Positions 1,336-48,558 of a stretch of 64,000 bases of DNA are shown piece after piece. Each line of letters opens with the position of its first letter. Position 1 is the first letter of the stretch. The stretch comes from Desulfobacteraceae bacterium Eth-SRB1 (GTDB taxonomy: Bacteria > Desulfobacterota > Desulfobacteria > Desulfobacterales > ETH-SRB1). The stretch lies in NCBI GenBank assembly GCA_004193555.1, contig RPGP01000029.1:36093-100092 (forward strand), read 5' to 3'. The translations under genes were made by a program, and so were the position numbers. The notes under the pieces were generated by a model that made no database searches, was not told the DNA's origin, and was given only the letters and a program-made list of their open reading frames with translations.

Positions 1336-2121
1336 ATGAGTACATTAGATGATAAAGCTAAAGAGGTTTCTGCCGAAGCTGTCGATGAGGCAGAAACAGA
1401 GTCACCCACGGAAGTAAACGAAAAAAAACAGGATAATGGCCCATGGGGATACATTATCCTGTTTTTTATTATTGGGTTTGCGGCAAGTCTTGTGATCGGG
1501 TGGGGGATTTTTCCTAAGGTTCTCTATTCTCAGAAAAAGCAGCCGATAGATTTTAATCATGTTCTTCATGTTGCGGCTGTTGAGGAAGGATGTGAAAGTT
1601 GCCATTTTTTTCGTGAAGACGGCTCCTTTTCCGGAGTGCCTAAACTTGCCCAGTGCGTTGAGTGCCACGAAGAGGTTCAGGGGGAAGATCCTAACGAAGC
1701 CAAGTTTGTTGAGGAATATGTGGCAAAAGGAAGAGAGGTGCCCTGGCTTGTTTATTCGAAACAGCCTGATTGTGTTTTCTTTTCCCATATAGCCCATGTC
1801 AATATGGGTAAAATGGAGTGTGATACATGCCACGGTCATATTGGTGAATCTACGCATTCAAAGGTTTACGAAGAAAACAGGATTACAGGTTACAGCCGTG
1901 ATATCTGGGGGAAAAACATTGCCGGGCTCAAAAAGAATACATGGGATCGGATGAAAATGGATGATTGTGCTGAATGCCATGCTGAAAATAAAGCGGTTCC
2001 AAAAACCGTCGAGACACTTCCATGGCCTATAAGCTGGATGCCAAGGCCTTATGAAAAACCGGCCAGCAGCCAGGTTAGGGTACAGATAGACAAAGATGCA
2101 TGTTTTGTATGCCATAAGTAA
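1336..2121 (+). CDS. qrcA: Menaquinone reductase multiheme cytochrome c subunit QrcA
   Basis: One N-terminal TM helix; five CxxCH motifs (CESCH, CVECH, CDTCH, CAECH, CFVCH); first gene of a qrcABCD-type operon. Confidence 0.9.
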   Translation: MSTLDDKAKEVSAEAVDEAETESPTEVNEKKQDNGPWGYIILFFIIGFAASLVIGWGIFPKVLYSQKKQPIDFNHVLHVAAVEEGCESCHFFREDGSFSGVPKLAQCVECHEEVQGEDPNEAKFVEEYVAKGREVPWLVYSKQPDCVFFSHIAHVNMGKMECDTCHGHIGESTHSKVYEENRITGYSRDIWGKNIAGLKKNTWDRMKMDDCAECHAENKAVPKTVETLPWPISWMPRPYEKPASSQVRVQIDKDACFVCHK

Positions 2122-2172
2122 TTAAGCTACAGGCTTATTTTTTGCCAGCAATATTTATAAGGGGTATAATCA

Positions 2173-4437
2173 ATGAAAGTATGCAGAAGAAGTTTCTTAT
2201 CATTGGTAATTGGTGGTGCAGCAGGCACGGCCCTTTCGCCATTACCATGGAAGCTGATTGATGACAGTTCTATATGGACACAGATGTGGCCCTGGACTCC
2301 GGTGCCGGAAGATGGCGAAGTTAGTCATGTAAACACTGTATGCTCTCTTTGCCCTGGTGGTTGCGGGCTTACCGTTCGAAAGGTTAATGAGCGGGCAATT
2401 AAGATAGAGGGCATGAAAGGGTATCCTGTAAATGATGGCGGAGTATGCCTTCTTGGATTATCCGGCCTTCAGCTGCTTTATGGTTCTACGCGTGTTAAAA
2501 CCCCTTTGAAAAGAACAGGAGCCAGGGGTGAAGGAAAATGGGAGAAAATATCCTGGGATGAGGCCATTGCAGAAGTTGCAAAAAAGCTCGCCGATTTAAG
2601 GGCAAAAGGGTTGTCCCATACAGTCGGATGTATTGCAGGCTCGGATCGCGGGACAGTAGCTCATCTGCTTGGAAGGTTCCTGACAGCATACGGCAGTCCG
2701 AATTTTATACGTACTCCATCCATGCAGGATTCCTACGAACAGACAATGTACCTGATGCAGGGCGCTCAGGCTTCAGCCGGATTTGATGTTGAAAATGCTG
2801 ATTTTATATTGAGCTTTGGAAGCGGATTAATAGATGGATGGGGATCTCCTGTGCGTATGTTCAAGGCTAACAGCGCATTGAAAAATAAAGGCAAACTGGT
2901 GCAGGTTGAGCCTCGTCTGTCCAATACAGCAGCAAAATCAGATAAGTGGATTCCAATTAACCCTGGGACAGAGTCTGCCTTGGCTCTTGGGCTTGCACAT
3001 GTAATTATTAAAGAATCATTATATGACTATGACTTTGTTAATAATTATTCCTTTGGGTTTGATGATTGGACTGACGATCAGGGCACATCCCGCAAGGGAT
3101 TTAAACAGATTGTGCTTGATGAATACAGTCCGGATGATGTTGCGGAGATTACGGGCATTTCTTATTCCACTATAATAGATCTGGCCAAAAGCTTTGCCCG
3201 TGCATCTAAACCGCTTGCGATTTGCGGACGTGGTCAGGGAAATACCCCGGGCAGTTTAAGTGAATTTATGGCGGTACATGCCTTGAACGCTCTTGTTGGA
3301 AATATCAACAAAAAGGGCGGCGTCTGGGCTGTTCCCGACCCCGATTATATCAGATGGCCTGAAGTAGAAATGGATATTAATGCTGCAAAGGGGATGCGGG
3401 CAAATCGCATAGATGGAGCAGGGGGCAAAACTTATCCGGACTCAAGATATTTGTTGAACAGATTCCCCGAGGCAGTCAATTCCGGAAAAGAATATCCAAT
3501 AGAGGCTCTTTTTGTTGTGGGAGCCAATCCTGTTTATACTCTTCCTGACAGCAGGGCCGTGAAAGAAGCCTTTGACAAGATACCGTTTGTGGTAAGCTTT
3601 TCTTCATATATGGATGAGACCGCCGCAAATGCCGATCTTATTCTTCCTAATCATATTTTTCTTGAACGTTATGAAGATGTGCCTATGCCTGCCGGGCTTC
3701 AGAAACCTGTTGTCGGTCTTTCAAAACCGGTTGTAAAGCCCCAGTTTAATACCAGGCATGTTGGTGATGTAATAATTCAAATAGCAAAAGCATTTGGGGG
3801 AGGAATAGCAGATTCTTTTCCATGGGATAACTATGAAGCCTGCCTGCAAGAAACACTTGGTAGAAAATGGGATACTCTGAACGAAGATGGATTCTGGTTG
3901 GATTCTAATTTTAGGGCTCCGGGTTGGGAAAGGGCATTTGATACGCCATCTGGAAAATTTGAATTTTTTCCCAGAACCCTTGCCGCAAAAAACGAAAATA
4001 CATTTCCACAATTTAGCCCTGTTGAACCCGAAGGTAATGAAGGCAGGTTCCCTCTTATTCTCATTCCATATGATTATATGAGGCTTGCAAGCGGCTTTAT
4101 CGGAGATCCTCCTTTTGCCATAAAAACTGTTGAGGATACAGTGCTTAAGGGTAATGATATCCTTGTTGAGGTTAATCCAAAGTCGGGCAGAGGGTTCAGA
4201 GAAGGCGATCAGGCAATTCTTAGCACCCCGAAGGGCAGTGTAAAGGTCAGGGTTCATCTTTTTGACGGGATTATGCCAGGCTTAGTGGCCATGCCCAGAG
4301 GGCTGGGGCATACAGCATATGACGAATACCTCGCTGACAAGGGTATTAATTTTAATGAACTCATCGGTACGGTTGAAGATCCTGTTTCCGGTCTTGATGC
4401 AGCCTGGGGAATAAGGGCCAAGCTGACAAGAGCTTAA
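2173..4437 (+). CDS. qrcB: Menaquinone reductase molybdopterin-oxidoreductase-like subunit QrcB
   Basis: Tat signal (CRRSFL), Fe-S motif CSLCPGGC...C, molybdopterin oxidoreductase fold motifs, operon position. Confidence 0.9.
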   Translation: MKVCRRSFLSLVIGGAAGTALSPLPWKLIDDSSIWTQMWPWTPVPEDGEVSHVNTVCSLCPGGCGLTVRKVNERAIKIEGMKGYPVNDGGVCLLGLSGLQLLYGSTRVKTPLKRTGARGEGKWEKISWDEAIAEVAKKLADLRAKGLSHTVGCIAGSDRGTVAHLLGRFLTAYGSPNFIRTPSMQDSYEQTMYLMQGAQASAGFDVENADFILSFGSGLIDGWGSPVRMFKANSALKNKGKLVQVEPRLSNTAAKSDKWIPINPGTESALALGLAHVIIKESLYDYDFVNNYSFGFDDWTDDQGTSRKGFKQIVLDEYSPDDVAEITGISYSTIIDLAKSFARASKPLAICGRGQGNTPGSLSEFMAVHALNALVGNINKKGGVWAVPDPDYIRWPEVEMDINAAKGMRANRIDGAGGKTYPDSRYLLNRFPEAVNSGKEYPIEALFVVGANPVYTLPDSRAVKEAFDKIPFVVSFSSYMDETAANADLILPNHIFLERYEDVPMPAGLQKPVVGLSKPVVKPQFNTRHVGDVIIQIAKAFGGGIADSFPWDNYEACLQETLGRKWDTLNEDGFWLDSNFRAPGWERAFDTPSGKFEFFPRTLAAKNENTFPQFSPVEPEGNEGRFPLILIPYDYMRLASGFIGDPPFAIKTVEDTVLKGNDILVEVNPKSGRGFREGDQAILSTPKGSVKVRVHLFDGIMPGLVAMPRGLGHTAYDEYLADKGINFNELIGTVEDPVSGLDAAWGIRAKLTRA

Positions 4438-4453
4438 ATCAAAGTATGAGGTT

Positions 4454-5272
4454 TTGATGAAAGAAGAACATAAACACGTAAAAACCAAAAAGTATGGGAT
4501 GGTCATAGATCTGGATAAGTGTACCGGTTGCGGGTCCTGTATGGTAGCCTGTATGTCTGAGAATAATGTGCCTTTTAAGAAGGACGAAACAAATAAGCTT
4601 GACAGCATCACATGGCTGCGGATCTATAAGTTGACTAACGGAAAAAAGTTTCCTGAAACAGATATATGCTATATCCCAAGACCGTGCATGCAATGCGAGG
4701 GTGAACATGGCCATGCACCATGCGTATCTGTTTGTCCCGCCACTGCTACTGATTATAATCACGAGACAGGGATTGTCAGCCAGATTTATACCCGCTGTTT
4801 CGGCTGCAGGTACTGTATGGCCGCATGCCCATATCATGCCAGGTATTTTAACTGGTGGGATCCGGTATGGCCGGACGGTATGGAGAAATCTTTAAGTCCG
4901 AATGTTTCACCCAGAATGAGAGGTGTAGTTGAGAAATGCAGCTTCTGCTTTCACAGGTATCAACTTGCAAAGAACAAGGCATATGCTCAGGGACGTCGAG
5001 AACTAAAAGAGGATGAATACCAAACTGCATGTACACAGGCCTGTCCTGCCGGCGCTATTACTTTTGGCGACCTGAACAATCATAATCATGCTGTATATAA
5101 GCTTGCAAAACCGGATAACAAGCATGGTGGTCGCCCAAGAAACCCCAATGCATTCAGGCTGCTTGAGAAACTGGGCACCAATCCAAAAGTTTACTACCTT
5201 TCGACCCGTGAATGGGTGAGACGGGCCGGAGATAATTATATTAAAGATGAAGGCAAATTAGAACACCATTAA
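4454..5272 (+). CDS. qrcC: Menaquinone reductase iron-sulfur subunit QrcC
   Basis: CTGCGSC, CMQC, CFGCRYC, CSFC ferredoxin motifs (NrfC/DmsB family). Confidence 0.92.
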   Translation: MMKEEHKHVKTKKYGMVIDLDKCTGCGSCMVACMSENNVPFKKDETNKLDSITWLRIYKLTNGKKFPETDICYIPRPCMQCEGEHGHAPCVSVCPATATDYNHETGIVSQIYTRCFGCRYCMAACPYHARYFNWWDPVWPDGMEKSLSPNVSPRMRGVVEKCSFCFHRYQLAKNKAYAQGRRELKEDEYQTACTQACPAGAITFGDLNNHNHAVYKLAKPDNKHGGRPRNPNAFRLLEKLGTNPKVYYLSTREWVRRAGDNYIKDEGKLEHH

Positions 5273-5326
5273 TCTTGATATTGAACGATAACTTAATCAC
5301 CGCACATATTTAGGAGCACATAAGTT

Positions 5327-6583
5327 ATGGATTCTGCATTAATACCCGAGGGGGTTAAACGCTGTTCATTTGGAAAATTTATCTTATGGATTGTTATAGT
5401 CGGTGCTGTGCTGTTGTGGGGCGTTGTCGCCATGCTGCTTTGCTGGTTCAAGGGGCTTAACCAGACAAACATGAACGATGCCTACGGGTTTGCCCTATGG
5501 ATCTGGGCTGATCTGGCGGTTATCGCTCTTGGAGGCGGAGCTTTTTTTACCGGTTTGTTGAGATATGTCATGGGTAAAGATGAGCTAAAAAACATCATCA
5601 ACTATGCTGTCCTTATAGGGTTTATCTGTTACAGTTCTGCGCTTCTTATTCTTGGGATGGATGTGGGACAACCACTCAGGTCCTGGTTTATATTCTGGCA
5701 TGCGAATGTTCACTCCATGCTGACCGAAGTGGCTTTCTGCCTTTCCTGCTACTTTGCGGTTCTGACCATTGAATATATTCCGCTTATTCTTGAGAACAGG
5801 CAGATTGACAGGGTGCCGTTTTTTCATAACCTGAGCCATAACATGCACGGAATCATGGCGATATTTGCTGCAACAGGCGCTTTCCTTTCCTTTTTCCATC
5901 AGGGATCACTTGGCGGAACCCCGGCAGTTCTTTTTGGGCGTCCATTTTCTTTCAGAGAAGGGGTTTTAATCTGGCCATGGACATTTTTTCTCTTTACCTG
6001 GTCGGCGGCAGCATGCGGGCCGTGTTTTACAATACTTGTTACATGGATTACCGAAAAAATAACGAGGAAAAAGCTTGTTAAGCAAAATGTTATCATGCTG
6101 CTTGCCAAGATTGCCGGCTGGATGCTTGCGACATATACTGTTGCGAAGATAATTGACACCTGGTATTGGGCTACTGTTACGGCGCCGGCCCGAGGATTTA
6201 ACTTCATGGATTTTTATTCCAATAATCCATTATATGGCCCATGGATACTTGTGCTTGAAATAGTTATTTGCGGTGTTATTCCATCTATAATACTTATTAC
6301 CAAAACAGGCCGCAAGTCTTCATTTTTACTTATAAGCGCTGTGCTTCTTGCAGTGCTTGGGGCATGCGTGAATCGCTGGGTGATGGTGCTCCAGGTAATG
6401 GCTGTGCCGGTGCTTACATTTGAAAGCTGGTTTATGTACTTTCCAAGCTGGCAGGAGATCGCTACAACTATTCTTCCGGTAGCATACGGTATTATTCTGA
6501 TAATGATTTCATACCGTTATCTGCCGATATTCCCTCAGGAACAGGAAATAGAGGAGGAGAAAAATGCTTCCATTTTCGTTTGA
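5327..6583 (+). CDS. qrcD: Menaquinone reductase integral membrane subunit QrcD (NrfD/PsrC family)
   Basis: About 10 TM helices; WIWADL, DVGQPLR and FHQGSLGG motifs. Confidence 0.92.
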   Translation: MDSALIPEGVKRCSFGKFILWIVIVGAVLLWGVVAMLLCWFKGLNQTNMNDAYGFALWIWADLAVIALGGGAFFTGLLRYVMGKDELKNIINYAVLIGFICYSSALLILGMDVGQPLRSWFIFWHANVHSMLTEVAFCLSCYFAVLTIEYIPLILENRQIDRVPFFHNLSHNMHGIMAIFAATGAFLSFFHQGSLGGTPAVLFGRPFSFREGVLIWPWTFFLFTWSAAACGPCFTILVTWITEKITRKKLVKQNVIMLLAKIAGWMLATYTVAKIIDTWYWATVTAPARGFNFMDFYSNNPLYGPWILVLEIVICGVIPSIILITKTGRKSSFLLISAVLLAVLGACVNRWVMVLQVMAVPVLTFESWFMYFPSWQEIATTILPVAYGIILIMISYRYLPIFPQEQEIEEEKNASIFV

Positions 6584-6722
6584 ATGGGCGTGGGATATGG
6601 GTCATATGGTATTTATGGGCGGCCTGTGGTATGCGCTGACTATTTTAGGCCTCGGCATGACTTATTGTATTATTATGGCTGCTGTTGATACAGCAAAGGG
6701 CAAAGGTAGTCATAACCACTAA
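6564..6722 (+). CDS. 52-aa membrane protein overlapping the qrcD end (below the ORF-track cutoff)
   Basis: Strong RBS GAGGAGGAG at 6551-6559, ATG6564; MLPFSFEWAWDMGHMVFMGGLWYALTILGLGMTYCIIMAAVDTAKGKGSHNH*; one hydrophobic helix. Confidence 0.75.
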   Translation: MLPFSFEWAWDMGHMVFMGGLWYALTILGLGMTYCIIMAAVDTAKGKGSHNH

Positions 6723-6753
6723 TCGCACGACATATTAATAATAAAGACAGATG

Positions 6754-6799
6754 AAAAGCGCTTATCTCATTGTTAGATGCTGGTAGGCGCTTTTTTTTT
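6754..6799 (+). terminator. Putative intrinsic terminator after the qrc operon
   Basis: AAAAGCGC...GCGCTTTT stem followed by a T9 tract. Confidence 0.5.
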
Positions 6800-6812
6800 G
6801 GAGAATAAATAA

Positions 6813-8066
6813 ATGGACAAAATTGTTGTGGAGGGAGGAGCCTCTCTGAAAGGTGAAGTAAAAATAAGCGGATCCAAAAATGCGGCGCTGCCCATACTGG
6901 TTTCATCTCTTCTTGCAGATGGATGGAACACATATTCTAATGTTCCTGGTTTACGAGATATCAAGAGTATAAAACAGCTTCTTTCATATCTTGGGGCAAA
7001 AGTGGAAACAGATGGAAGTACCGTACGGATTGATGGTAGCGGTCTTTGTAAAAGCGAGGCGCCCTATGATCTGGTAAGGAAAATGAGAGCTTCCATCCTG
7101 GTTCTTGGTCCCCTCGTAGCCAGGCTTAAAAAGGCCAGAGTATCATTGCCGGGCGGCTGCGCTATTGGCGCCAGGCCGATAAATTTGCATTTAAAGGGCC
7201 TTGCGCGTTTAGGGGCTTCAGTTGAATTGAAACATGGTTATGTTGAAGTTTCAGCCGAACGTCTTAAAGGAAATGAGATTTATTTTGATATACCAACAGT
7301 AACCGGCACGGAAAATCTTATGATGGCTGCTGTTCTTGCGGATGGAGTTACTGTTTTACGCAATGCAGCTTGTGAGCCTGAGATCGTGGCGCTTGCCGAT
7401 GTTTTAAACAAGATGGGGGCAGATATTCACGGCGCTGGCGCTTCCATAATTACAATAAAAGGTGTCCAATCAATGCACCCTGTATCGGTGTCCATCATAC
7501 CTGACAGGATAGAGGCAGGCACTTTCATGGTTTCGGCGGCTTTGACCCGTGGAGATATAACGATTCTGGATTGCCAGCCAGCACATATGGGAACCCTGAT
7601 TCATAAGCTTAGACTAACAGGGACAGCTATAAAGATAGATGGTAAAAATATTCATGTTATTGGATCTGATGAAATTGAGAGTATTGATATTAAGACATTA
7701 CCATATCCTGGTTTTCCCACCGATATGCAGGCGCAGTTTATGGTCCTGATGTTGATTGCAAAAGGTCTTAGCATTATATCCGAAACTGTATTTGAAAACC
7801 GTTTTATTCATGTTAGCGAACTCAGGCGTATGGGCGCTGACATTACGATATCCGGCAATTCTGCAATGATTAAAGGTGTGCCCATGCTGTTAGGCGCTCC
7901 GGTAATTGCAACAGATCTTCGGGCCAGCGCTTCGTTGATACTGGCAGGCCTTGTTGCCAGAGGCAAAACAGAGGTGCATCGTGTTTATCATTTAGATCGT
8001 GGATATGAAGCAATCGAGAAAAAATTTGCCCGGCTTGGAGCGTCAATAGAGCGGGTCAGAGAATGA
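6813..8066 (+). CDS. murA: UDP-N-acetylglucosamine 1-carboxyvinyltransferase
   Basis: [38 protein letters not shown]. Confidence 0.98.
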
Positions 8067-8132
8067 AGGTCAGAAGTCAGAGGTCGGAAGTCAGAGCAAG
8101 GATTGATGATTGTCGATTGAAAAGATAGAATT

Positions 8133-8204
8133 CCTTATTCAAAATTCGACGTTGAACGTTCGATGTTCGATGTTCATCTTTTAAGCCCGCCCGAAGGGCG
8201 CTAA
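8133..8204 (+). repeat. 72-bp dispersed repeat with GTTCGAT heptamers; second copy at 29079-29150
   Basis: CCTTATTCAAAATTCGA..GTTCATCTTTTAAGCCCGCCCGAAGGGCGCTAA; 3 mismatches between the copies. Confidence 0.9.
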
Positions 8205-36392: not shown

Positions 36393-37355
36393 TTACAGAT
36401 CCAATGGGCTTCGAACACCTCGCCCCCCTTTATTCAAAACATGAGTGTATATCATAGTAGTACTGACATCTTTATGGCCCAGAAGCTCTTGAATCGTCCG
36501 AATATCATAACCGTCCTCTAACAAATGTGTTGCAAAGCTGTGGCGAAACACATGGCTGCTTACCGTTTTTGTGACTCCTGAAATCCGAGCGGCTTTTTTT
36601 ATTGCCTTACTTAGACTATCCAGATGAATATGATGGCGTCTTTTAATACCGGAACGAGGGTCAACAGACAAGGTTTTGGATGGAAAGGCATACTGCCATC
36701 CCCATTCTTAGGAAGCATTTTTATATTTCTTTGCCAGAGCATTCGGAAGATAGACTGAACCATAGCCTTGAGACAAATCCTTTTCATGCAGCTTCTTGAC
36801 ATATTTTAGATGTTCTTTTAACGCAAGTTTAGCATCTTCCGGAAGCATTGTAACCCGGTCTTTTTGACCTTTGCCATTGCGAACTACAATCTGGTTCATC
36901 TCAAAATCTATATCTTTAACCCGCAATCTTACGCATTCAATCCCCCGAAGACCACATCCATAAAGAAGTTTTACTATCAATTGAAATATACCTGTGATGG
37001 AATTGATAATTTCCATAGTTTCATCAAATGTCAAAACAGTCGGAAGACGTTGAGGCTTTTTCGCTCGAAGCGCATCAATATTTTTAAATACATCTTTATT
37101 TAGAACATTTTTATATAAAAACAGTAATGCGCTGAAAGCCTGGTTTTGTGTTGAAGCAGCTACATTACCTTTGACAGCCAAATCGGTGAGAAATGCCTCT
37201 ATCTCTTTTTTGCCCATATCTTTTGGATGCCGCTTATTGTGAAAATAAATATATCGTTTTATCCATGAGACATATGCTTCTTCCGTCCTTATGGAGTAAT
37301 GTTTTAAACGAATCTTATTCCGTACGATGTCTAAAAGTTTCGGCTGCTGGTTCAT
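36393..37355 (-). pseudogene. intI: Integron integrase with an in-frame stop at 36708-36710
   Basis: [39 protein letters not shown], plus the integron-specific insert YLPNALAKKY...EWGWQY. The two ORFs are in the same frame, separated by TAA. Confidence 0.93.
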
Positions 37356-37699
37356 GGTATAATAACTTGATTTTAGAATAATTATGAAGTATAGGTTTAG
37401 AGAATTTTCTTCCATATTTGTACTATTTTTCTGGATTTTGCAACAAATAAAAGTTTATAAAGATATTTTTCTGAATATAACATTATATCTTTTTTTATTA
37501 AGAAATAATTATTAATTTTATTATAGAAATATTATTTGCGAAGGTTACCTAACAGAAAATATATTTTATATTTTTCAATAGATAGATTAATACACTTGAA
37601 ATGAATATAGATGTTAAAATACCTTTAAAGAAATCTAACATCCGGTATTTTAACATAATTTACAACTATTCAAGATAATTTAACTTTATTAACGTTATT

Positions 37700-38434: not shown

Positions 38435-38562
38435 AGATAACAACCGCTTGCACTCTGACCGGCGGGGTCGTGCGGCTTTACAAAGTTTTCGGTATGCGAA
38501 ATAACGCACCATTAAACAGACCTCAGGTTTGCTCCGCCGTCAGGTGAAGCGGGGCGTTCGGT
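38435..38562 (+). other. attC site 1
   Basis: R'' AGATAAC; L'' CTT[G]CAC[T]CTGAC[C]GGCGG pairs with CCGCCGTCAGGTGAAG; R' GTTCGGT. Confidence 0.9.
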
Positions 38563-39245: not shown

Positions 39246-40774
39246 TGACGAAAAAAAAGAAAATAGAATTTGGTGATTTCCAAACACCAATTGAACTTAC
39301 CGATAATATATCAAAATTTATTAAAACCATTTTCCCCACACCAAACATTATTATCGAGCCAACATGTGGCTTAGGGAGTTTCGTTAAATCCTGTAAATCT
39401 ATTTGGGGAACAGATTGCTCTTATTATGGGTTCGATGTAAATCCTCAATATATTGAAAAATGTAATACGAACATTAATGACCGAGGTAATTGCCACTTTG
39501 AAGTGGCAAATTTTTTCCAGAAAAACTGGAAGGATCTGTTTCTTACTTACAAAAAATCTAAAGTTTTAGTAGTCGGAAATCCTCCGTGGGTTACGAATGC
39601 GGCTTTGGGTGTTCTCAACAGTAGCAATTTGCCTCAAAAATCTAACTTTCAGGGTTTAGGTGGTTTTGCAGCAAAAACAGGAAAAGCAAATTTCGACATA
39701 GCAGAATGGATGCTAATAAAATTAATTGAAAGCTTAAAGGGATGTAACGCATGCATAGCAATGTTATGTAAAACAGCAACTGCTAGAAAAGTTTTAAAAC
39801 ACTTTTGGATTAATAATAGCCAAATTAATAATAGTTTTATTCATTTAATTGATGCTAAACAGTATTTTAACGTATCTGTTGATGCTTGCTTATTTGTCAC
39901 TTTCGTAAATTCTAAAGATAAATCTAAAGACGCATATATTTATAATGATTTGTCTTTTAGAAATGAAGTAACTCATTTAGGTATATATGCTAATGAATTA
40001 ATAGCAAATATTGATGATTTTGAGAAGTATCGTGATGTAGATGGTATTGATTACTATAAATGGCGTTCTGGAATTAAGCATGATGCTTCTAGGGTAATGG
40101 AGTTAACAAAGGATAATGATAAATTTAAAAACGGTTTCGGAGAATACGTTGAGATAGAGAGTGAATATCTATATCCGCTTTTAAAATCATCAGATCTTGG
40201 CAATAATAGACTTACACCTCGAAAATATGTGATTGTTACTCAAAAGACCGTAGGAGAAAATACTATAGTAATAAAAAAAACTGCACCGAAAACATGGGCA
40301 TATCTGGAACAGTATTCTTCTATTTTGGATAGCAGAAAAAGTATTATTTATAAGAATCGTCCACGATTTTCTGTTTTCGGTATAGGTGATTATAGTTTTA
40401 CTTCATGGAAGGTTGCGATTTCTGGTCTTTATAAAGGGATTCATTTCTGTGCAATTGGGCAGTATGATAAAAAACCGATTATGGTAGATGATACTTGTTA
40501 TTTTATCCCATGTAGTTCAAAAGCTGAAGCAATACTTTTTGCTCAACAACTAAATTCTGAACCTTGCATGAAATTTCTTAAATCTTTAATATTTTTTGAT
40601 GCCAAGAGGCCAATTAATATAGATATTTTAAGAAGGATTGATTTTAAAAAACTTTCTGAAATAAATGAAAAAGAGGATGAAGTTTTAAAATTTTTGACTT
40701 ATGCCCAAGCTCCATTAACTCAACAACTCTCGTTGGTTTTTGAAAAAACGGAAGAATACCGAACAATCGGATGA
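39245..40774 (+). CDS. Cassette 2: N6-adenine DNA methyltransferase (gamma class)
   Basis: Motif I IEPTCGLGSF, motif IV GNPPW. Confidence 0.88.
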   Translation: MTKKKKIEFGDFQTPIELTDNISKFIKTIFPTPNIIIEPTCGLGSFVKSCKSIWGTDCSYYGFDVNPQYIEKCNTNINDRGNCHFEVANFFQKNWKDLFLTYKKSKVLVVGNPPWVTNAALGVLNSSNLPQKSNFQGLGGFAAKTGKANFDIAEWMLIKLIESLKGCNACIAMLCKTATARKVLKHFWINNSQINNSFIHLIDAKQYFNVSVDACLFVTFVNSKDKSKDAYIYNDLSFRNEVTHLGIYANELIANIDDFEKYRDVDGIDYYKWRSGIKHDASRVMELTKDNDKFKNGFGEYVEIESEYLYPLLKSSDLGNNRLTPRKYVIVTQKTVGENTIVIKKTAPKTWAYLEQYSSILDSRKSIIYKNRPRFSVFGIGDYSFTSWKVAISGLYKGIHFCAIGQYDKKPIMVDDTCYFIPCSSKAEAILFAQQLNSEPCMKFLKSLIFFDAKRPINIDILRRIDFKKLSEINEKEDEVLKFLTYAQAPLTQQLSLVFEKTEEYRTIG

Positions 40775-40830
40775 ACTCTGACTGAAAAAGCCTGGCCGTT
40801 TTTTGGTTTCTACAAATTTTGTTGTTTATC
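40758..40830 (+). other. attC site 2, left half (interrupted by IS21)
   Basis: R'' ACCGAAC is the complement of GTTCGGT at the start of cassette 2; L'' GGATGAACTCTGA; ends abruptly at TGTCAA. Confidence 0.85.
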
Positions 40831-40955
40831 TGTCAATGGACAATAATTTTGACCCACTACCGGACAATAAAACTGACCCACCCCCTGCACTTAGTTTAAA
40901 TTGATTTTTTGTTTGAGCCGATAGCTTTCACCCCCCATCATAAAAATATGTGAAC
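40831..40955 (-). mobile_element. IS21-family terminal region (probable right end)
   Basis: TGTCAATGGACAATAATTTTGACCCACTACCGGACAATAAAACTGACCCACC: TG start and tandem transposase-binding repeats. Confidence 0.75.
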
Positions 40956-42295
40956 CAAATGGCATTACCAAAGGCAGCCTGGATTAATAAACCATCACCG
41001 AGATAAAGAGAAGTGATTCGGTGATACACTAAATACTGATGGAGGTGTCTCATTTTCATTGACACATTCCGCATTACCTTTAATGGTTCTTAACCGTCAT
41101 ATTGAAATAATCATCAAGTGCATAATGTGCAAAGATATTTGGCTATCGGACTACGAACGCTTAGTAGCCTCCTTCATCACTTACCGTTAATTCTCCATTA
41201 CTGAGAATACCTGCCTTAAACATCCTTCGGATATATCTTAGGAAGCGTTTATCTTGTATCTTGCTGGACAATTGTTCCATCAGTAGTTCATGGTCAATTG
41301 TTCTAAAATAGTTTGACAAGTCAAGATCAATAACTTTCCTCACTGATTGGCTGTATAAATGTCTTCGAAGTTCTTTTAAAGCATCATGACACCCCAATTT
41401 TGGTCTAAGTCCATATGAGCTATTCCAAAATAAAGGTTCATAGATAGCTTCAAGTATTTTCTGCACTCCTTTCTGGACAATTTTATCTTCAAAATTGCCT
41501 ATTCCCAATGGTCTTGTAAGCACATTTCTTCCTTCTTTTAGAATTAGTATCTCACCAAGAATAAAGGGAATATGCAGGGGACATTGTTTTCAACTTTTTC
41601 AGTAGAGCATCGAGATTCTCCTCCAGATTTTCACCATACTTTTCTTTTGTCATACCATCAATACCAACCGCTGCTTTTCCTTTGAGCGACTGATACCAAT
41701 CCAGCAAATTCTCTTTATTGAAATGATGCATTAATTGATTAAATACCATTTCAGGATTATCTGCTGATAATTTACTTATTATTGCAAATTTTGTTTCCAT
41801 AATTACCGATATTCTGCGCTACTATCGTGTCGCTGCAATATCAATTATAACCTGGGCCTTCCTCCACCGGCGTTACCCGGTTTCAACAGTACTATGAGTC
41901 CTCCCCGACCTATTATTCGTCTCAATTTCCTTGCTTATTAGGCTTTGTAATTGATACTCCATCCATGGAGGAAACAGTAAGGTCTCCACGTTTATAAAAT
42001 AGCTTTGTTTACATGCCACGATCCTCGGGAGGTGCCATAACGTCTACCATTTGGCGTTGAGGATTTATGGTGTTGTTTGCCTTCTGACGCCGCGAGCGAA
42101 ATGAAAGCACCTCAAATGACAAAATTAACGGAACTCAATCGCTTCAACATATGTTTCGGCCCCACCTAAACTCTGCAATGCTGCAGCACAATGGCTTGTT
42201 ACCAGACGCTGCACAAGACTCGATAATCGATGTGCCGGGTCAAAGCACTTTCGATGTATTCACTTTCAGATGCCAGCTGGCACTTCGTGGCGCAC
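40955..42295 (-). repeat. Indel-rich inverted copy of 45754-47100 (group II intron 5' part, RT fragments and IS3 end)
   Basis: Same GTGCGCCACGAAGTG start, same RT peptide (frameshifted), same IS3 junction. Confidence 0.9.
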
Positions 42296-42315
42296 AGCGG
42301 TTTTTTGCGTCGGCT

Positions 42316-43180
42316 TCCGGGTAAAGGTACCGGTTACCCGGCGCCCTCCCCACAGACCCGTACGTGAAGCTTGCCCTCATACGGTTCCTCGATTCAGGCC
42401 CTTTTTACCGAGCCGTCAACCAATCAGGCGACACCCCGATTGGCGCATAACTTTGATGCCCATAGGCAAATCAAATATTATTGTGGACTATTCTGGGTAG
42501 CGGTAATGGGTGCGTTCTGCGCAAGTCTTCGAACAAGACGTTGCCAGTGTGACTGCGGCGGCTTAGCCACCTCCGCCACGCCCTCTCGGGATGTTCGAAC
42601 ACGACTTCCAGAGCCTTGTAATTACCACAAACTCCGTAGTACTGGTAAAAACCCCTTAACTTACTCCAGAGCACCTTGTACTGTTCTTTCATCGCATCAT
42701 GCCGGTTAGCCTTACACCATTGCCACAGCATCTTCATGAAACGGTGTAACCGCTTCCTCGCTGTTTTCTTCTTTATCACCCAATATCCTCTTCGAGACTT
42801 CCCCCAGTAAAATGTGAATCCAAGAAAGTCAAACGTTCCCTTTCCTTTCCGCACTACCTTTGAAGCCGGCTTCCTGAACGGAATTACCCTGGTTTTTTCC
42901 GGATGAAGGGCCAACCCATAGCGATTAAACCGCTTGGGCAATACGTCCATTATCCTTGCAGCGTCTGATTCCAGTTCACAACCTATTACGAAATCATCCG
43001 CCCAACGGATTATGAAGCATTTCCCTTTCATTCGGGGTAAAGCTTTCTTTACGACCCAGTCGTCGAGTACATAGTGGAGAAATATATTGGAAAGCACGGG
43101 CGAAATCACCCCGCCTTGGGGTGTGCCTTTCCCGGGATGAGAAAGAACTCCTTCCTCCATTACACCTGCATTCAACCATT
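42316..43180 (-). mobile_element. Group II intron A, 3' half: RT/maturase C-terminal part (ORF 42471-43175) plus domains V and VI
   Basis: GTPQGG, RWADD, LHPEKT; DV/DVI GGAACCGTATGAGGGCAAGCTTCACGTACGGGTCTGTGGG...TACCCGGA. Confidence 0.9.
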
Positions 43181-43194
43181 TGGACGCGGGCTTA

Positions 43195-44286
43195 GGGGAC
43201 GTTCTTCAGTTCATAAGTTTGTATCATCAATGAGTAAATATTGATGTTCTTTTGCGATTTTTTCACCCCGTTTTACAGACAAACTCACGGCTGGTTCAGA
43301 TAATTTCAGCTTACGTGAAAGTTCCGACATCCTCATTCCCAATTCCCTGACGGCCCAATAGCACAGCAAACTTCTTGCCTGAACTATGTGAGGATATTTT
43401 CCTTTTATCCACAAATCTTTGGCTTCAAGCCCCAATAGATGAGAAACCCGCCGGACAACCTTGTCAAGATCAAACCCCATGGCCTGAAGAGAATATTTTT
43501 TATCCAGTTTGTCTTGAGCAGCTTTAAGGACTGTATTGACAAAATCACCATCACCCAAAATACGCTCATCACCTTTTTGATAAACTCCGGCCCTTCGCAT
43601 TGATTTTGCTTCTGACCATCCACCTATGCTGCGTATTAAACCTCCACCAGTCAGATCAGTTCTTTTTCCGTCAGGAATTCCTTTCTTTACATAAGATCGA
43701 TATCGCCGCCTCGCAACAGAAACCTTTGTATCGAATAAACACAGGACAATCAAGGGGAATAGGGTACATTCTTCACATTGTAAGTTGCTAATATATAGAA
43801 AGAGTGACATAAAAAAATATGCCAAGAAAAGTCAGGATAGATGCATCTGGTGCTCTTCACCACATTATTGCCAGAGGCATTGATAGAAATACAATCTTTC
43901 AGGATGATTTTGACCGAAAGAACTTTATAGACAGTTTGGAAAGATGTCCATGACGCTTGTGCCTGCGATTATATGACATGGCATAACCGGTCAAAAGTCG
44001 TCTCATCACTGTTGCAACAGGAGCAAGACCGGTTCTGAGCAGCAAATGGAAATGATTCGGAATCAGCGCCCAGGCATAGCAGATTGTTTTGCTTTCATTT
44101 AGAATGGCAGGCAGCCTGTCTATAAAGTTCTTTCGGTCAAAATCGTCACCAATTGCCGACATAATCAATGCCTCTGCAAGCGTAGTAATTGAGAGCACCA
44201 GAGCATCTATCCTGGCTTTCCATGGCATATTTTTCTTGTGTCACACTTTCTATATATTAGCAACTTATAATGTGAAGAACGTCCCC
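43195..44286 (-). mobile_element. Y1 (HUH) RAYT-like transposase element with 25-bp terminal inverted repeats; centre disrupted
   Basis: MP.KARIDA..., YAWALIPNHFHLLLRTG, C-terminal HTH; TIRs GGGGACGTTCTTCAnnnnATAAGTT at 43195-43219 and 44262-44286; TA on both flanks. Confidence 0.8.
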
Positions 44287-44687: not shown

Positions 44688-45753
44688 TGTTAGCGGTCCG
44701 TTTATAATGACGGTAGCCGAACAATAAAACTGACCCACCCTCAAACAGTGCTTAACAGGCAGCATAATAAAAAAATTATTTACCATAATTAATATGTTGT
44801 AGGAGGTTCCTCATTATTTTCAATAAGGAGGAACAGATGTGAAGAAGATTGGAATAGCCAGGTTTACATAAAGATTAAATTGCTCTATGATGATGATGGC
44901 CAGCGGGTACATTTTAGCTCCGTGCCATTGCTATCAGACTTCAGGTATCGAGGAATACAATCGAAGATACCTGCAAATGAATGAGGAAGAGATCTGCAAG
45001 ATATGTAAAGCAAGAGACGGACAGAACTCGGTAAAATATAAAATTATATTATCTCCTGCTTGAAAATATGAAGAAATTATCTGCTGTTAAAATCAAACTT
45101 AAAATAGGGATAGTTTAACTGTCTCTAACGGGTCACCAGCCAAGGCGCTACGTAAACGGAATCAGGCAAACTATAGCCATTGAGAGCAGAAACGCTATTA
45201 TGAACCTGTTATGGATATGGTTCCAGGGAGTTCAGTGCTTGGTGAATCACGGAGAAATCAAGGAGGAATGTTCCTGTTGGCGATAAATTTATCACTATCC
45301 TATTTTGTAGTATTTGTTCTCTCTTTTTACGACAAATGCTTGTATGTTGCGGCCTCTAATCGGCCAATTAATACAGAAGGCATGTTTATCAAGGATGCAT
45401 GATGAGGGCCTTTTAGATACTTTGACGGTGTTTGTGAAATTATTATTCTATGACCAGACTAAGCTTGTTACAATCACCAGAAGGAGTTCAGAGGAGGAGT
45501 CTGGTTCAATGAAAGTTTTTTATCAATATGCTTCTGCGGCCCTTGGATATATACGAGGTATGTGAAGGATATTATGACCGAAACAAGAACCCAAGGGTCG
45601 AGTCCGGTGTAAAATATGTAAGAACGATTTTTTTTCTATGGCGACACATTTGATTCTTTTTGATCAGCTCAAGCACGAATCTTTGCAGTTAGATTGGATA
45701 CGGTTGCAAACAAAAAGCGTATTCACGGCTTACGAAAAAGCCGGAAGAACTTT
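44688..45753 (+). mobile_element. istA: IS21 left end and frameshifted 5' part of istA
   Basis: TGTTAGCGG...ACAATAAAACTGACCCACC; peptides RAIAIRLQVSRNTI, RYYEPVMDMVPG, YDQTKLV, ESGVKYV across frameshifts. Confidence 0.75.
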
Positions 45754-46988
45754 GTGCGCCACGAAGTGTAAAATAACTGGCATCTGAAAGTGAATGCATC
45801 GAAAGTGCAACCCAGCACATCGATTATCGAGTCTTGTGCGGTGTCTGGTAACAGGCACTGTAAAGCGTAGACAGAGAGTTTGTAGGCCGGAAACATATGT
45901 TGAAGTGATTGAGTTCCGTTAATTTTGTCATTTGAGGATGGCTGATGGCTTCGCGGCGTCAGAAAGCAATATCATAGCCGACACTAAATGGGGAGGAAGC
46001 TATGACACCTTCGGGATCGTAGAGCCTGGCATGCAAACAAAGCTATTTTATAAACGTGGGAGACCCTATTGTTTCTCCAAGGATAGAGTATCAATTACAA
46101 GCCTAATAAGCGAGAAAGTTGAGACGAATAATAGGGAGTCAGAGAACTCATAGTACTGAAGAAGCCGGGTAATGCCGGTGGAGGGAAGGGGTTCAGGTTA
46201 AATCGCTATTGTGAAGGACACATAATAGATAACACAGAATATCGGTGATTATGAGAACAAAATTTGCAATAATAAATAGATTATCAGCAGAAAATCCTGA
46301 AATGGTGTTTAATCAATTGATGCACCACTTCAATAAAGAAAATTTGCTGAATTGGTATCAATCGCTCAAAAGAAAAGCAGCGGTCGGTAGTGATGGTATG
46401 ACAAAAGAAGAATATGGTAAAAATCTTGAAGAGAATCTTGATACTCTACTGGAAAAGCTGAAGACAATGTCCTATGTTCCCGGTTCTGTAAAGCAAATAT
46501 TAATTCCTAAAGAAGGAAGTAAAGGAGCTACAAGACCATTGGGAATAGGCAATTTTGAAGATAAAATTGTCCAGAAAGGAGTGCAGAAAATACTTGAAGC
46601 TATCTATGAACCTTTATTTTGGAATAGCTCATATGGATTTAGACCAAAATTGGGGTGTCATGATGCTTTAAAAGAACTTCGAAGACATTTATACAGCCAA
46701 TCAGTGAGGAAAGTTATTGATCTTGACTTGTCAAACTATTTTGGAACAATTGACCATGAACTACTGATGGAACAATTGTCAAACAAGATACAAGATAAAC
46801 GCTTCCTAAGATATATCCGAAGGATGTTTAAGGCAGGTATTCTCAGTAATGGAGAATTAACGGTAAGTGATGAAGGAGTGCCACAAGGTAGTGTCTGTAG
46901 TCCGATATTAGCCAATATCTTTGCACATTATGCACTTGATGATTGGTTTAATATGACGGTTAAGAACCATTGTAAAGGTAATGCGGAA
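45754..46988 (+). mobile_element. Group II intron B, 5' half with RT N-terminal part (ORF from about 46251), truncated by IS3
   Basis: GTGCG 5' end; AAVGSDG, RPLGI, SYGFRP, DLSNYF, GVPQGS; stops before the YADD motif. Confidence 0.9.
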
Positions 46989-48558
46989 TGTGTCAATGAA
47001 AATGAGACACCTCCATCAGTAATTTAGTGTATCACCGAATCACTTTCATTCGGTGATGGTTTATTAATCCAGGCTGCCTTTGGTAATGCCATCGGTTTTG
47101 GAACCTTTCCCTTGAACCGGTTTGGATGTTTTTCAAAGGCTATTTTCAATACCTTTTCACGCTCTTTGATAATTTGTTCAGCCCGTCCATAATGTACATC
47201 TTCCGGTGTGACAAAACCAATACCTGAATGGTAGTGTCCTGTATTGTACCAAAGGAAGAAGCCATGACAAAAGAATCTGGCATCTTCAATAGCGCCAAAC
47301 CGCTCTGGAAACTCAGGCCGATATTTCATGGTCTTGAACTGCGATTCTGAATAAGGGTTGTCATTGCTGACGTAGGGTCTTGAATGACTTTTGGTAATCC
47401 CTAAATCAGCCAATAACAATGCCTTAAAATAATAAAGATGTTAATTGGCCTCTTGGCATCAAAAAATATTAAAATTTAAGAAATTTCATGCAAGGTTCAA
47501 ATTTAGTTGTTGAGGCAAAGTATTGCTTCAGCTTTTTGAACTACATGGGATAAAATAACAAGTATCATCTACCACTTAATCGGTTTTTATCATACTGCCC
47601 AATTGCACAAAATAAGATCGCTTTATAAAGACCAGAAATCGCAACCTTCCATGAAGTAAAACTATAATCCACCTATACCGAAACAGAAATCGTGGACCGA
47701 TTCTTATAAAAATAATACTTTTTCTGCTATCAAATAAGAATACTGTTCCAGATATGCCCATGTTTTAGTTTTTTTTTATTACTATAGTATTTTCTCCTAC
47801 AGTCTTTTTGAGTAGCTGTCATATTTTCGAGGGTGTAAGTCTATTATTGCCAAGATCTGATGATTTTAAAGCGGATATAGATATTCACTCTCTATCTCTT
47901 GTATTCTCGAAACCGTTTTTAAATTTATCATTATCCTTGTTAACTCCATTACCCGCAGAAGCATCGTAGCAATTTCCAGAACGCCATTTATAGTAATCAA
48001 TACCATCTACATCCGCGATACTTCTCCAAAATCATCAATATTTGCTATTAATTCATTAGCATATATACCTAAATGAGTTACTTCATTTCTAAAGACAAAT
48101 CATTATAAATATATGCGTCTTTAGATTTATCTTTAAATTTACAGAAGTGACAAATAAAGCAAGCATCAACAGATACGTTACAATACTGTTTAGCATCAGT
48201 GCCGTGAATAAAACTATTATTAATTTGTGTAATCAAAGTGTTTTAAAACTTTCACAGCAGTTGCTGTACATAAAGCATTGCTATGCATGCGTTACATCCT
48301 TTAAACTTTTCAATTAATTTTATTGGCATCCATTCTGCTATGTCGAAATTTGCTTTTCTGTTTGCTGCAAAACCTACACCTAAACACAAAGAGAGTTAGA
48401 TTTTGAGGGCAAATTGCTGTTGAGAACACACACCCAATTTGTTGCTTTGCTAACATGGGTTGCTATTGATGCATTCTTTAACATTTTATTTCTCCTTCCC
48501 GCCCTCTATAATATACACTAAATTATAGGTTGGGAAGTGTCTCACTTATATTGGCACA
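46989..48558 (-). mobile_element. IS3-family element, 1570 bp, interior overwritten
   Basis: 26-bp IRs TGTGTCAATGAAAATGAGACACCTCC (46989) and TGTGCCAATATAAGTGAGACACTTCC (48558); transposase C-terminus at 47024-47419 (SNDNPYSES, WYN...H); RBS and ATG at 48484. Confidence 0.85.
47425..48437 (-). repeat. Indel-rich inverted copy of the MTase gene segment 39605-40630
   Basis: Colinear reverse-complement match across about 1 kb with many small indels. Confidence 0.92.

Follow-up and report, generated by a model that had tools for sequence, protein, structure and literature searches.

Two intron remnants and their setting

We analysed a stretch of 64,000 nucleotides (nt) from Desulfobacteraceae bacterium Eth-SRB1 (assembly GCA_004193555.1, contig RPGP01000029.1, positions 36,093 to 100,092 of the forward strand), which is called the window in the following. 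The subject is a pair of group II introns, A and B, on the minus strand of the window, which are separated by a short spacer that resembles a piece of an attC, i.e., of the recombination site of an integron cassette. Read on the minus strand, the junction consists of ...GGTACCTTTACCCGGA (end of A), AGCCGACGCAAAAAACCGCT (spacer) and GTGCGCCACGAAG... (start of B). That is, A ends with ...CCTTTACCCGGA and its final base is 42316, the 20-nt spacer covers 42315-42296, and B starts with GTGCGCC at base 42295. Both boundaries agree with other copies of the introns: the homology with a second genomic copy of A (C1:428372, on another contig of the genome) ends right past ...CCCGGAAG, and three copies of B share a homology that starts exactly at GTGCG. 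The first-pass annotation of the window had proposed two different introns in tandem, 20 nt apart, and this is exactly what is found. The spacer has a double role: it serves A as 3' exon and B as 5' exon, and for B it provides the intron-binding sites (IBS) IBS2 (GCAAAA) and IBS1 (ACCGCT).

Intron A is preserved with its 3' part only (42316..43182, -; the 3' end is fixed by the copy comparison). The remnant comprises domains V-VI (42316-42389, -), for which the Rfam model RF00029 gives a match at 42315-42389 with 37.3 bits, i.e., just below the gathering score of 40. Furthermore, it holds a C-terminal open reading frame (ORF) of 234 codons of its reverse transcriptase (RT; 42471-43175, -; RVT_1 and GIIM, TIGR04416). 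The homology to the C1 copy ends near 43182, where the upstream part of A is gone and another mobile element begins. Intron B (41109..42295, -) is complete at its 5' end (GTGCG) and cut on the 3' side. It shows both exon-binding sites (EBS), namely EBS2 at 42119-42124 (-) and EBS1 at 42089-42094 (-), and frameshifted pseudogene pieces of its RT (41552-41800 and 41161-41523, -). Its domains I-IV yield a weak match of 21.6 bits to RF02005 (group-II-D1D4-6), which has a gathering cut-off of 49 bits. Both introns are thus decayed and now dead.

The RTs of A and B are about 39% identical. Both RT motifs by which the first-pass annotation had distinguished the introns are real, and GTPQGGVISP belongs to the RT of A. 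The second one (GVPQGSVCSP), however, does not stem from B itself, where indels garble the respective region, but from a paralogous copy B' (45755..46983, +).

This copy is inverted with respect to B, as each of them belongs to one arm of a large inverted duplication (39606-42296 vs. 48432-45753). The region as a whole is full of broken elements, with insertion sequence (IS) fragments, another transposon and an 8.8-kb pseudo-palindrome. Intron B is truncated by an IS3-family fragment (40959..41108, +); the intron-IS junction is identical in B and B', and the ORF for the N-terminal RT part of B' (46245-47027, +) is cut by the same IS. Adjoining B', we find a 3' fragment of an IS3-family transposase (rve_3; 46984..47437, -). 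The place of the missing 5' part of A is occupied by a gene of another mobile element (43211..43825, -), which is tyrosine-transposase-like and carries a DnaA-type helix-turn-helix tail (weak Bac_DnaA_C match). This wreckage would be of later origin, produced by the other element entering A, the IS entering B and the inverted duplication. No attC can be recognised in the 5' flank of B'. This flank shows (45700-45754, +; CACGGCTTACGAAAAAGCCGGAAGAACTTT) a small hairpin and CGAAAAAGCCG, which is similar to the B site described below but displaced by 10 nt.

The window contains a genuine integron. Its integrase gene (intI) is a pseudogene in two ORFs (36393..37415, -; TIGR02249 with 279 and 143 bits over the two pieces), which anchors a cassette array on the plus strand. 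The attC of cassette 1 (attC1; 38437..38562, +) is a bulged hairpin with extra bases in the 5' arm of its top strand. As its orientation is anchored by intI, attC1 serves as the internal reference for strand assignment. A restriction-modification cassette is also part of the integron, and short genes together with an attC-like hairpin are found on the minus strand at 48.5-49.8 kb.

Insertion sites of the two lineages

To characterise the spacer, we collected relatives of B from genomes and metagenomes and compared their flanks. In total, 15 distinct 5' exons carry ...GACGCAAAAAGCCGCG directly before GTGCG. Three of them (the window, L024 and L032) have an A-type intron upstream, and the other 12 show an R'' box. 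For these 12 distinct loci, the 5' exon ends with ...(C)AG(C/T)CGACGCAAAAAGCCGCG immediately before GTGCG, and a box of type RYYYAAC is found 30-34 nt upstream of B where the upstream flank is intact. The 3' exons start with CGGCTGATTAGC (or a variant), followed by N1-4 and GTTRRRY, after which the next gene follows with its ribosome-binding site and start codon. The insertion point is ...GCAAAAAGCCGCG^CGGCTG..., i.e., the boundary of apex and L' arm. That is, the target of the B relatives is an attC of about 60 nt, in which the intron splits L'' from the complementary L' arm. An example is locus L012 with GGCGAAC-CAG-GCTAAT-G-CAGCCG-ACGCAAAAAGCCGCG^CGGCTGATTAGC-G-GTTAGCC, i.e., a 62-nt attC with R'', L'', apex, L' and R' and the intron at position ^.

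The spacer (42296..42315, -) agrees with this conserved 5' exon at 18/20 positions. Because of this match, it most probably represents what is left of an L'' arm together with the apex, both from a short attC, and the likeness to the L''-to-apex part of short attC sites noted in the first-pass annotation is supported by the same sequence occurring at 12 further loci, 30-34 nt past RYYYAAC. A 7-nt match between spacer and attC1 (AACCGCT) was also considered as a sign of attC origin and rejected, since it is at chance level; the real evidence comes from the relatives.

Four observations indicate that the B loci are different attCs, each invaded independently. The attC arms compensate each other between loci (GCTTTTGCAGCGG/CCGCTGAAAAGC in L011, GCTCTTGCAGCGG/CCGCTGAAGAGC in L029, CACATCAGTCG/CAATTGATGTG in L015), further attCs are close by in L024 and L029, the flanking ORFs are co-oriented with the intron in 24/26 informative flanks, and the intron's strand has an extra unpaired base in its 5' arm, in agreement with the top strand of attC1. 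An integron context, i.e., an intI gene, is given in the window as well as in the genomes G059, G075 and G216. All attC calls are based on explicit motif positions, arm complementarity and ORF orientation in place of a calibrated covariance model; by these means, attC features are present in related loci. A strict scan by regular expression plus minimum free energy missed the window's plain attC1, and the inverted-repeat tool is blind to bulged hairpins.

Empty targets are seen as well. The genome of the window (G000) has four empty short attCs with a B-type apex (GACGCAAAAAGCCGCG-like), which are single and scattered on the chromosome (C40:523532, C1:413518, C29:518342, C40:1160230). Further 3' ends of B followed by L'-R' halves are found at C1:421148 and at C29:113-126, the latter at the very start of the window's own contig.

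We also compared the EBS of B with its 5' exon. EBS1 (CGCGGC) is placed in the terminal loop of a domain I hairpin (GGCUGAUGGCUU-CGCGGC-GUCAGAAAGC) and is fully complementary to the six bases (GCCGCG) with which the exon ends at the relatives' site. EBS2 (UUUUGU) is located in an internal loop upstream and pairs with GCAAAA, one base further 5'. Both positions are standard for IIB-like introns and match unpaired regions of the RF02005 consensus. The comparison proposed in the first-pass annotation hence yields two elements that are complementary to the attC site. For distant relatives of B, the EBS1 loop covaries with the exon (AUCCUG/CAGGAU in L037 and L053, UCAUGC/GCAUGA in L034), and this sequence covariation confirms the role of the domain I hairpin.

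These distant relatives show 48-58% RT identity and flanks that are not attC-like. In the RT tree, the clade of B elements in attCs (100/100) is sister to the clade with non-attC-like targets, and A is found elsewhere. Given the flanks of the sister clade, attC homing belongs to one young sub-lineage of B. Within the attC clade, 14/17 full elements have a length of 1878-1881 nt and an open RT frame, which points to recent activity of the B elements. B also has a second target that shares the IBS1 (GCCGCG) and is located inside domain I of another intron, as observed for the intact copy on C1.

This copy (C1:346240-348118, minus strand; L006) is the only intact B in the genome and forms a twintron. 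Its 5' exon starts with GTGCGAAACTTGAG... and its 3' exon continues with CGTCCCGAAAGTGAAT. In L010 and L019, the sequence on the 5' side of B is similar to this type of target. On the metagenome contig L034, two distant B relatives (positions 3 and 2037) are arranged head to tail, about 140-170 nt apart, within a repeat-rich, non-attC setting that shows ATCCTGCC-type repeats.

For intron A, an A-type RT is found in 41/301 genomes of the same order, with at least 9 copies in some of them. All copies end with ...YUACCYGGA, their 3' exons typically begin with A(N3-4)GAC, and the 5' exons end with ...CTC ahead of G(T/C)GCC. The EBS1 of A covaries with the exon bases -8 to -3 (EBS1/IBS1 pairs GCAUGU/ACAUGC, GCAAAA/UUUUGC and GCAUUU/AAAUGC), with a looser fit in L070 and L067, and occupied sites differ from empty ones by exactly UCGUGCC...GGA. 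We had considered a 5' end at GTGCC, which is rejected given the EBS1 covariation and the empty sites; they place the boundary 2 nt upstream. That is, introns of the A family most likely start with UCGUGCC, two bases before GUGCC. UCGUGCC is an unusual 5' end for an intron (e.g., L024:1855, C1:426194, L062-L109).

With respect to this revised boundary, the trinucleotide AAC is found 9-12 nt (mostly 10-11) upstream in 21/30 distinct A 5' exons, compared to 6.7% for positions drawn at random from the genomes. The A sites of two complete genomes are textbook attCs of 110-125 nt, where 2-3 copies occupy neighbouring attCs. An occupied attC reads, for instance, ...CATATAAC-AAATCACTGC^ACCCGACCGCCAAC...GTTGGCGGCCGGTGAGTTCATC-GTTATA. 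Among the 35 informative ORFs flanking A relatives, 26 are co-oriented with the intron. Furthermore, EBS1 is retuned in each sub-lineage. By these sequence comparisons, A-type introns insert into the L'' arm at a fixed register from R'', i.e., 10-11 nt after AAC, in attCs of very different sequence.

The tandem arrangement is not restricted to the window, where A is at a position of type AATTC^AGCCGAC and B follows 20 nt further. In L024, an ORF-less relative of A (1855-2737) is followed by a 20-nt spacer (AGCCGACGCAAAAAGTCGCG) and B (2756-4634); attC halves are seen on the two sides (GCCGAACAAGGCTAATTC and CGGCTGATTAGCAGCGTTGGAT) and the cassettes around are co-oriented. The same order, with a spacer of 21 nt, is found in L032. 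Both are unrelated metagenome contigs and their downstream cassettes differ, such that the two tandems are separate events. On the other hand, L069 and L108 have A alone next to an empty B site, and most commonly B is found alone. Given this recurrence and the separate occurrence of A and B, the tandem would be the expected outcome of two site-specific introns with adjacent sites in one element, i.e., neither chance nor an artefact of the assembly.

Intron type and relation to known systems

The intact B copy on C1 has 1879 nt and a 1281-nt ORF that encodes an RT of 426 amino acids (aa). In a profile search, this RT shows only RVT_1 and maturase regions, i.e., no endonuclease domain. Its domain V (GAGCCCAUUGCCU-UAAUA-GGGCACGAUGGGUUC) has an AGC triad (GAGCC...) and a 5-nt loop (GCCU[UAAUA]GGGC), across which the energy minimum adds a U-A closing pair. 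Domain V of A (GAGG[GCAAG]CUUC) folds with a 5-nt loop, too; its triad is AAC (GAACC...) in place of the usual catalytic AGC. Both B' and the intact C1 copy match RF02005 with 120.8 bits, the ORF-less A relative in L024 with 89.3 bits, and this type of intron family is found in 0/14 control genomes. The B ribozyme with its EBS1 and EBS2 has about 600 nt, which is within the size range of class E/IIE-IIF introns (450-700 nt without ORF). Searching PDB with the B RT (phmmer) results in 141 bits for GsI-IIC vs. 127 bits for LtrA, i.e., there is no special closeness to IIC.

IIE/IIF introns are marked by a domain V loop of 5 nt, by their small size and by a IIB-like mode of recognition (Nagy et al., PMC3753933). 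The observed features support that A and B are not group IIC introns but belong to an endonuclease-less, IIE/IIF-like RNA type, where the assignment is by structure and not by clade. The first-pass annotation had considered the RTs class E-like rather than IIC; its non-IIC part is borne out by the AGC triad, EBS2, the RF02005 matches and the 5-nt loop, and 'class E' applies in a structural sense only. Our literature search found no mapping of RF02005 to a class of intron-encoded proteins (IEP).

With regard to the triad, the whole A family (window 42352-42390, -; L062, L063, L067, L093) starts domain V with GAAC... instead of GAGC.... That is, AAC replaces AGC and the usual G-U wobble turns into an A-A or A-G mismatch. 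The family includes multi-copy, apparently active members. We know of no described intron class with an AAC triad.

Insertion into attCs has so far been treated as a speciality of one IIC sub-lineage that reads the bottom-strand hairpin. These IIC-attC introns insert into the bottom strand at R'', antisense to the cassettes, and recognise the hairpin plus a short IBS1 (PMC3001079, PMC4424553). The introns studied here resemble them (S.ma.I2, Ge.s.I1 and relatives; Quiroga, Centron, Leon, Roy 2008-2010) in being endonuclease-less, in residing inside attCs, sometimes in tandem, and in splitting the site. However, IIC-attC introns have a CGC triad, no EBS2, a short domain I, an IBS1 of 3-4 nt that is used along with the hairpin, and R'' (TTGT/T) as antisense insertion point, whereas the introns here are IIB-like (E/F type), use a 6-nt EBS1 (plus EBS2 in B) and are found on the top strand in cassette sense, either in L'' or at the boundary of apex and L'.

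That class E fragments are associated with a cassette array is already published (PMC7923331). Sonbol and Siam (2021; PMC7923331) described H.ha.F1 and H.ha.F2, i.e., 5'-truncated class E fragments beside attC-like hairpins in a Halorhodospira cassette array, as well as UHB.I2 (CL1), which is co-oriented with the cassettes and located just after an attC, and they speculated about a role for the hairpin. Like A and B, these are non-IIC introns at attC arrays, there of halophiles. The difference is that these are three elements, reported without homing site, EBS-IBS pairing or comparative survey (PMC7923331), while here insertion points, pairing, strand and recurrence are available for two lineages and dozens of sites. 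Within our literature search, no later paper was found that defines site or pairing for non-IIC attC introns. What our sequence comparisons add is thus a defined, base-pairing-based candidate mode of top-strand attC homing in two IIB-like lineages.

Two further systems are similar in part. RmInt1 (class D; target ISRm2011-2) is also endonuclease-less, reads a site of 13-20 nt by EBS1 and EBS2, spreads by homing into a multicopy non-essential repeat and shows a replication-tied strand bias; in contrast, its target is an IS element and not a folded recombination site, and its RNA class differs. Nested introns of Methanosarcina acetivorans and bacterial twintrons (PMC4424553) show that homing next to or into introns leads to clusters, as for the intact B copy within domain I of another intron. 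The two introns of the window, on the other hand, are not nested but adjacent within a single exon sequence, and each occupies an attC position of its own.

Interpretation, alternatives and consequences

Our best explanation, which we consider highly probable, is that two now dead IIE/IIF-like introns each retrohomed into the top (cassette-sense) strand of one short attC, 20 nt apart. Here, A would have entered the L'' arm, 10-11 nt past the AAC of R'', and B the boundary of apex and L'. The intron RNA may reverse-splice into the top strand of the attC when it is single-stranded on the lagging-strand template, and reverse transcription would be primed by the replication fork, as in other endonuclease-less introns. 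The latter are known to reverse-splice into transiently single-stranded DNA at the fork, where the nascent strand serves as primer (PMC4424553). In accordance with such a pathway, the intron's sense strand is the G-rich one (= lagging-strand template) in 14/17 of the 20-kb regions around A copies. Chromosomal integrons keep the bottom strands of their attCs on the leading-strand template, and the strand bias of A also fits this arrangement.

Several observations weigh against this explanation. In the window, only 20 nt of the attC are left, R'' and L'-R' are gone, and its identity is derived from the comparison with other loci. The IBS1 of the spacer (ACCGCT) pairs with only 4/6 bases of EBS1. 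Since the region is a scrambled pseudo-palindrome, the orientation of A and B relative to the window's own array is ambiguous; the co-orientation with cassettes assumed by the first-pass annotation holds for the related loci (24/26 ORFs). Neither B' nor the intact C1 copy is in an attC, the latter being placed within another intron. About a third of the A-family sites have no AAC box and 9/35 informative flanks are opposite, i.e., not every A-family insertion is in a cassette-sense attC. Automatic attC tests on joined exons passed 4/13 B sites that are plain by eye, where these tests are crude in that many random sites also form spanning pairs. Finally, the class assignment is a structural one.

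Among the alternatives, chance adjacency assumes that rearrangements joined two intron fragments and that the spacer is meaningless. The many broken elements, the 8.8-kb pseudo-palindrome and the truncation of both introns are in line with this idea, but the spacer matches the B homing site at 18/20 positions and starts with a 3' exon typical for the A family, and A and B 20/21 nt apart recur with intact introns in two unrelated contigs with different flanking cassettes. We thus consider chance extremely improbable. Ordinary group IIC-attC introns of the S.ma.I2 kind, which recognise the bottom-strand hairpin along with an IBS1 of 3-4 nt and are antisense with respect to the cassettes, are very improbable. 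It is true that attC targeting is established for that lineage only (PMC4424553), that in the window A and B are on the strand opposite to the cassettes beside intI, and that the RTs share the lack of an endonuclease domain with IIC RTs. Yet the triad of B is AGC and not CGC, an EBS2 and a 6-nt EBS1 are present, the ribozymes match RF02005 and show the 5-nt domain V loop, insertion is in L'' and at the boundary of apex and L' instead of R'' TTGT/T, 24/26 flanking ORFs are co-oriented, and the intron's strand is the one with extra bases in the 5' arm, which corresponds to the top strand of attC1. Cassette mobility, i.e., an intron-carrying cassette that was moved along with its own attC by the integrase and without any homing, is very improbable as well. 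Cassettes are mobile and the apex next to B is near-identical in all loci; nevertheless, upstream ORFs, R'' boxes and L''/L' arms vary by locus while the intron stays constant, conservation is confined to the bases that pair with EBS2 and EBS1, there are empty sites that have the same apex, and A and B are found both separately and together.

The alternative with most weight, which we regard as unlikely though by no means negligible, is homing by sequence alone, where the repeat used as target is an attC only by coincidence. Hairpin, single-strandedness and integron context would then be irrelevant, and the link to attCs a by-product of abundant, conserved, non-coding repeats. It gains from the EBS1 and EBS2 pairing, which accounts for the B site, from the second B target with the same IBS1 inside another intron, and from the non-attC targets of the B sister clade. 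On the other hand, the register of A to the AAC of R'' is fixed across very different attCs while EBS1 is retuned, which suggests that a feature of the attC is recognised, and the same element is targeted on the same strand by two separate lineages, i.e., by convergence. For the preferred reading of two retrohomed introns, the sequence evidence supports ordinary EBS-IBS base pairing as the explanation of the target choice, with a contribution of the hairpin being only a possibility. The first-pass annotation had suspected a second, non-IIC intron lineage at attC hairpins; there are in fact two such lineages, with sites that are explained by EBS-IBS pairing.

A split of L'' and L' by 2-4 kb (B 1.9 kb; the pair nearly 3-4 kb) should block folding of the bottom strand. 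The split attC would be inactive for the integrase and the neighbouring cassettes would be fused, while the sense orientation would allow the introns to be transcribed with the cassettes and to splice out. Going beyond the window, we tentatively suggest that at least two non-IIC lineages, which evolved independently, have their natural habitat in attCs, where they read top-strand features in cassette sense. For A, the respective feature would be the R'' box, read at a fixed register, and for B the apex found in a family of short attCs. The introns would be cotranscribed and spliced, lock cassettes in place and favour the lagging-template strand, and thus be a counterpart of the IIC-attC introns in shaping sedentary integrons.

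If two IIB-like lineages do reach the attC by base pairing, on the top strand and in cassette sense, the cassette promoter can drive expression of their introns, which are then spliced out, and an occupied attC is disabled, which would freeze or fuse cassettes in the chromosomal integrons of sulfate reducers and other sediment bacteria. It would also provide a short (about 60 nt), defined natural target for asking whether folded single-stranded DNA aids the integration of endonuclease-less introns. The 1.88-kb B element, for which an intact RT is present in many metagenomes and the EBS1/EBS2 site is fully assigned, is directly usable in respective assays.

With regard to the integrons themselves, the genome of the window has five integron-integrase genes above the TIGR02249 cut-off (the window's own, C1:3178, C1:450443, C28:756 and C40:866297), two of which contain stop codons, along with about ten RF02005-type intron cores. 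Five such genes are many for a genome of 3.3 Mb. In G059, the orientation of the A copies relative to intI is uninformative, since intI is located between inverted copies of a gene of 759 aa. Here, in L118 (G059:C1:2954500-2974499), the integron integrase (4373-5353, -) is enclosed by two copies of this membrane-protein gene (1900-4179, -, and 5891-8170, +). Recombination between these inverted copies could flip the integrase relative to the cassette array.

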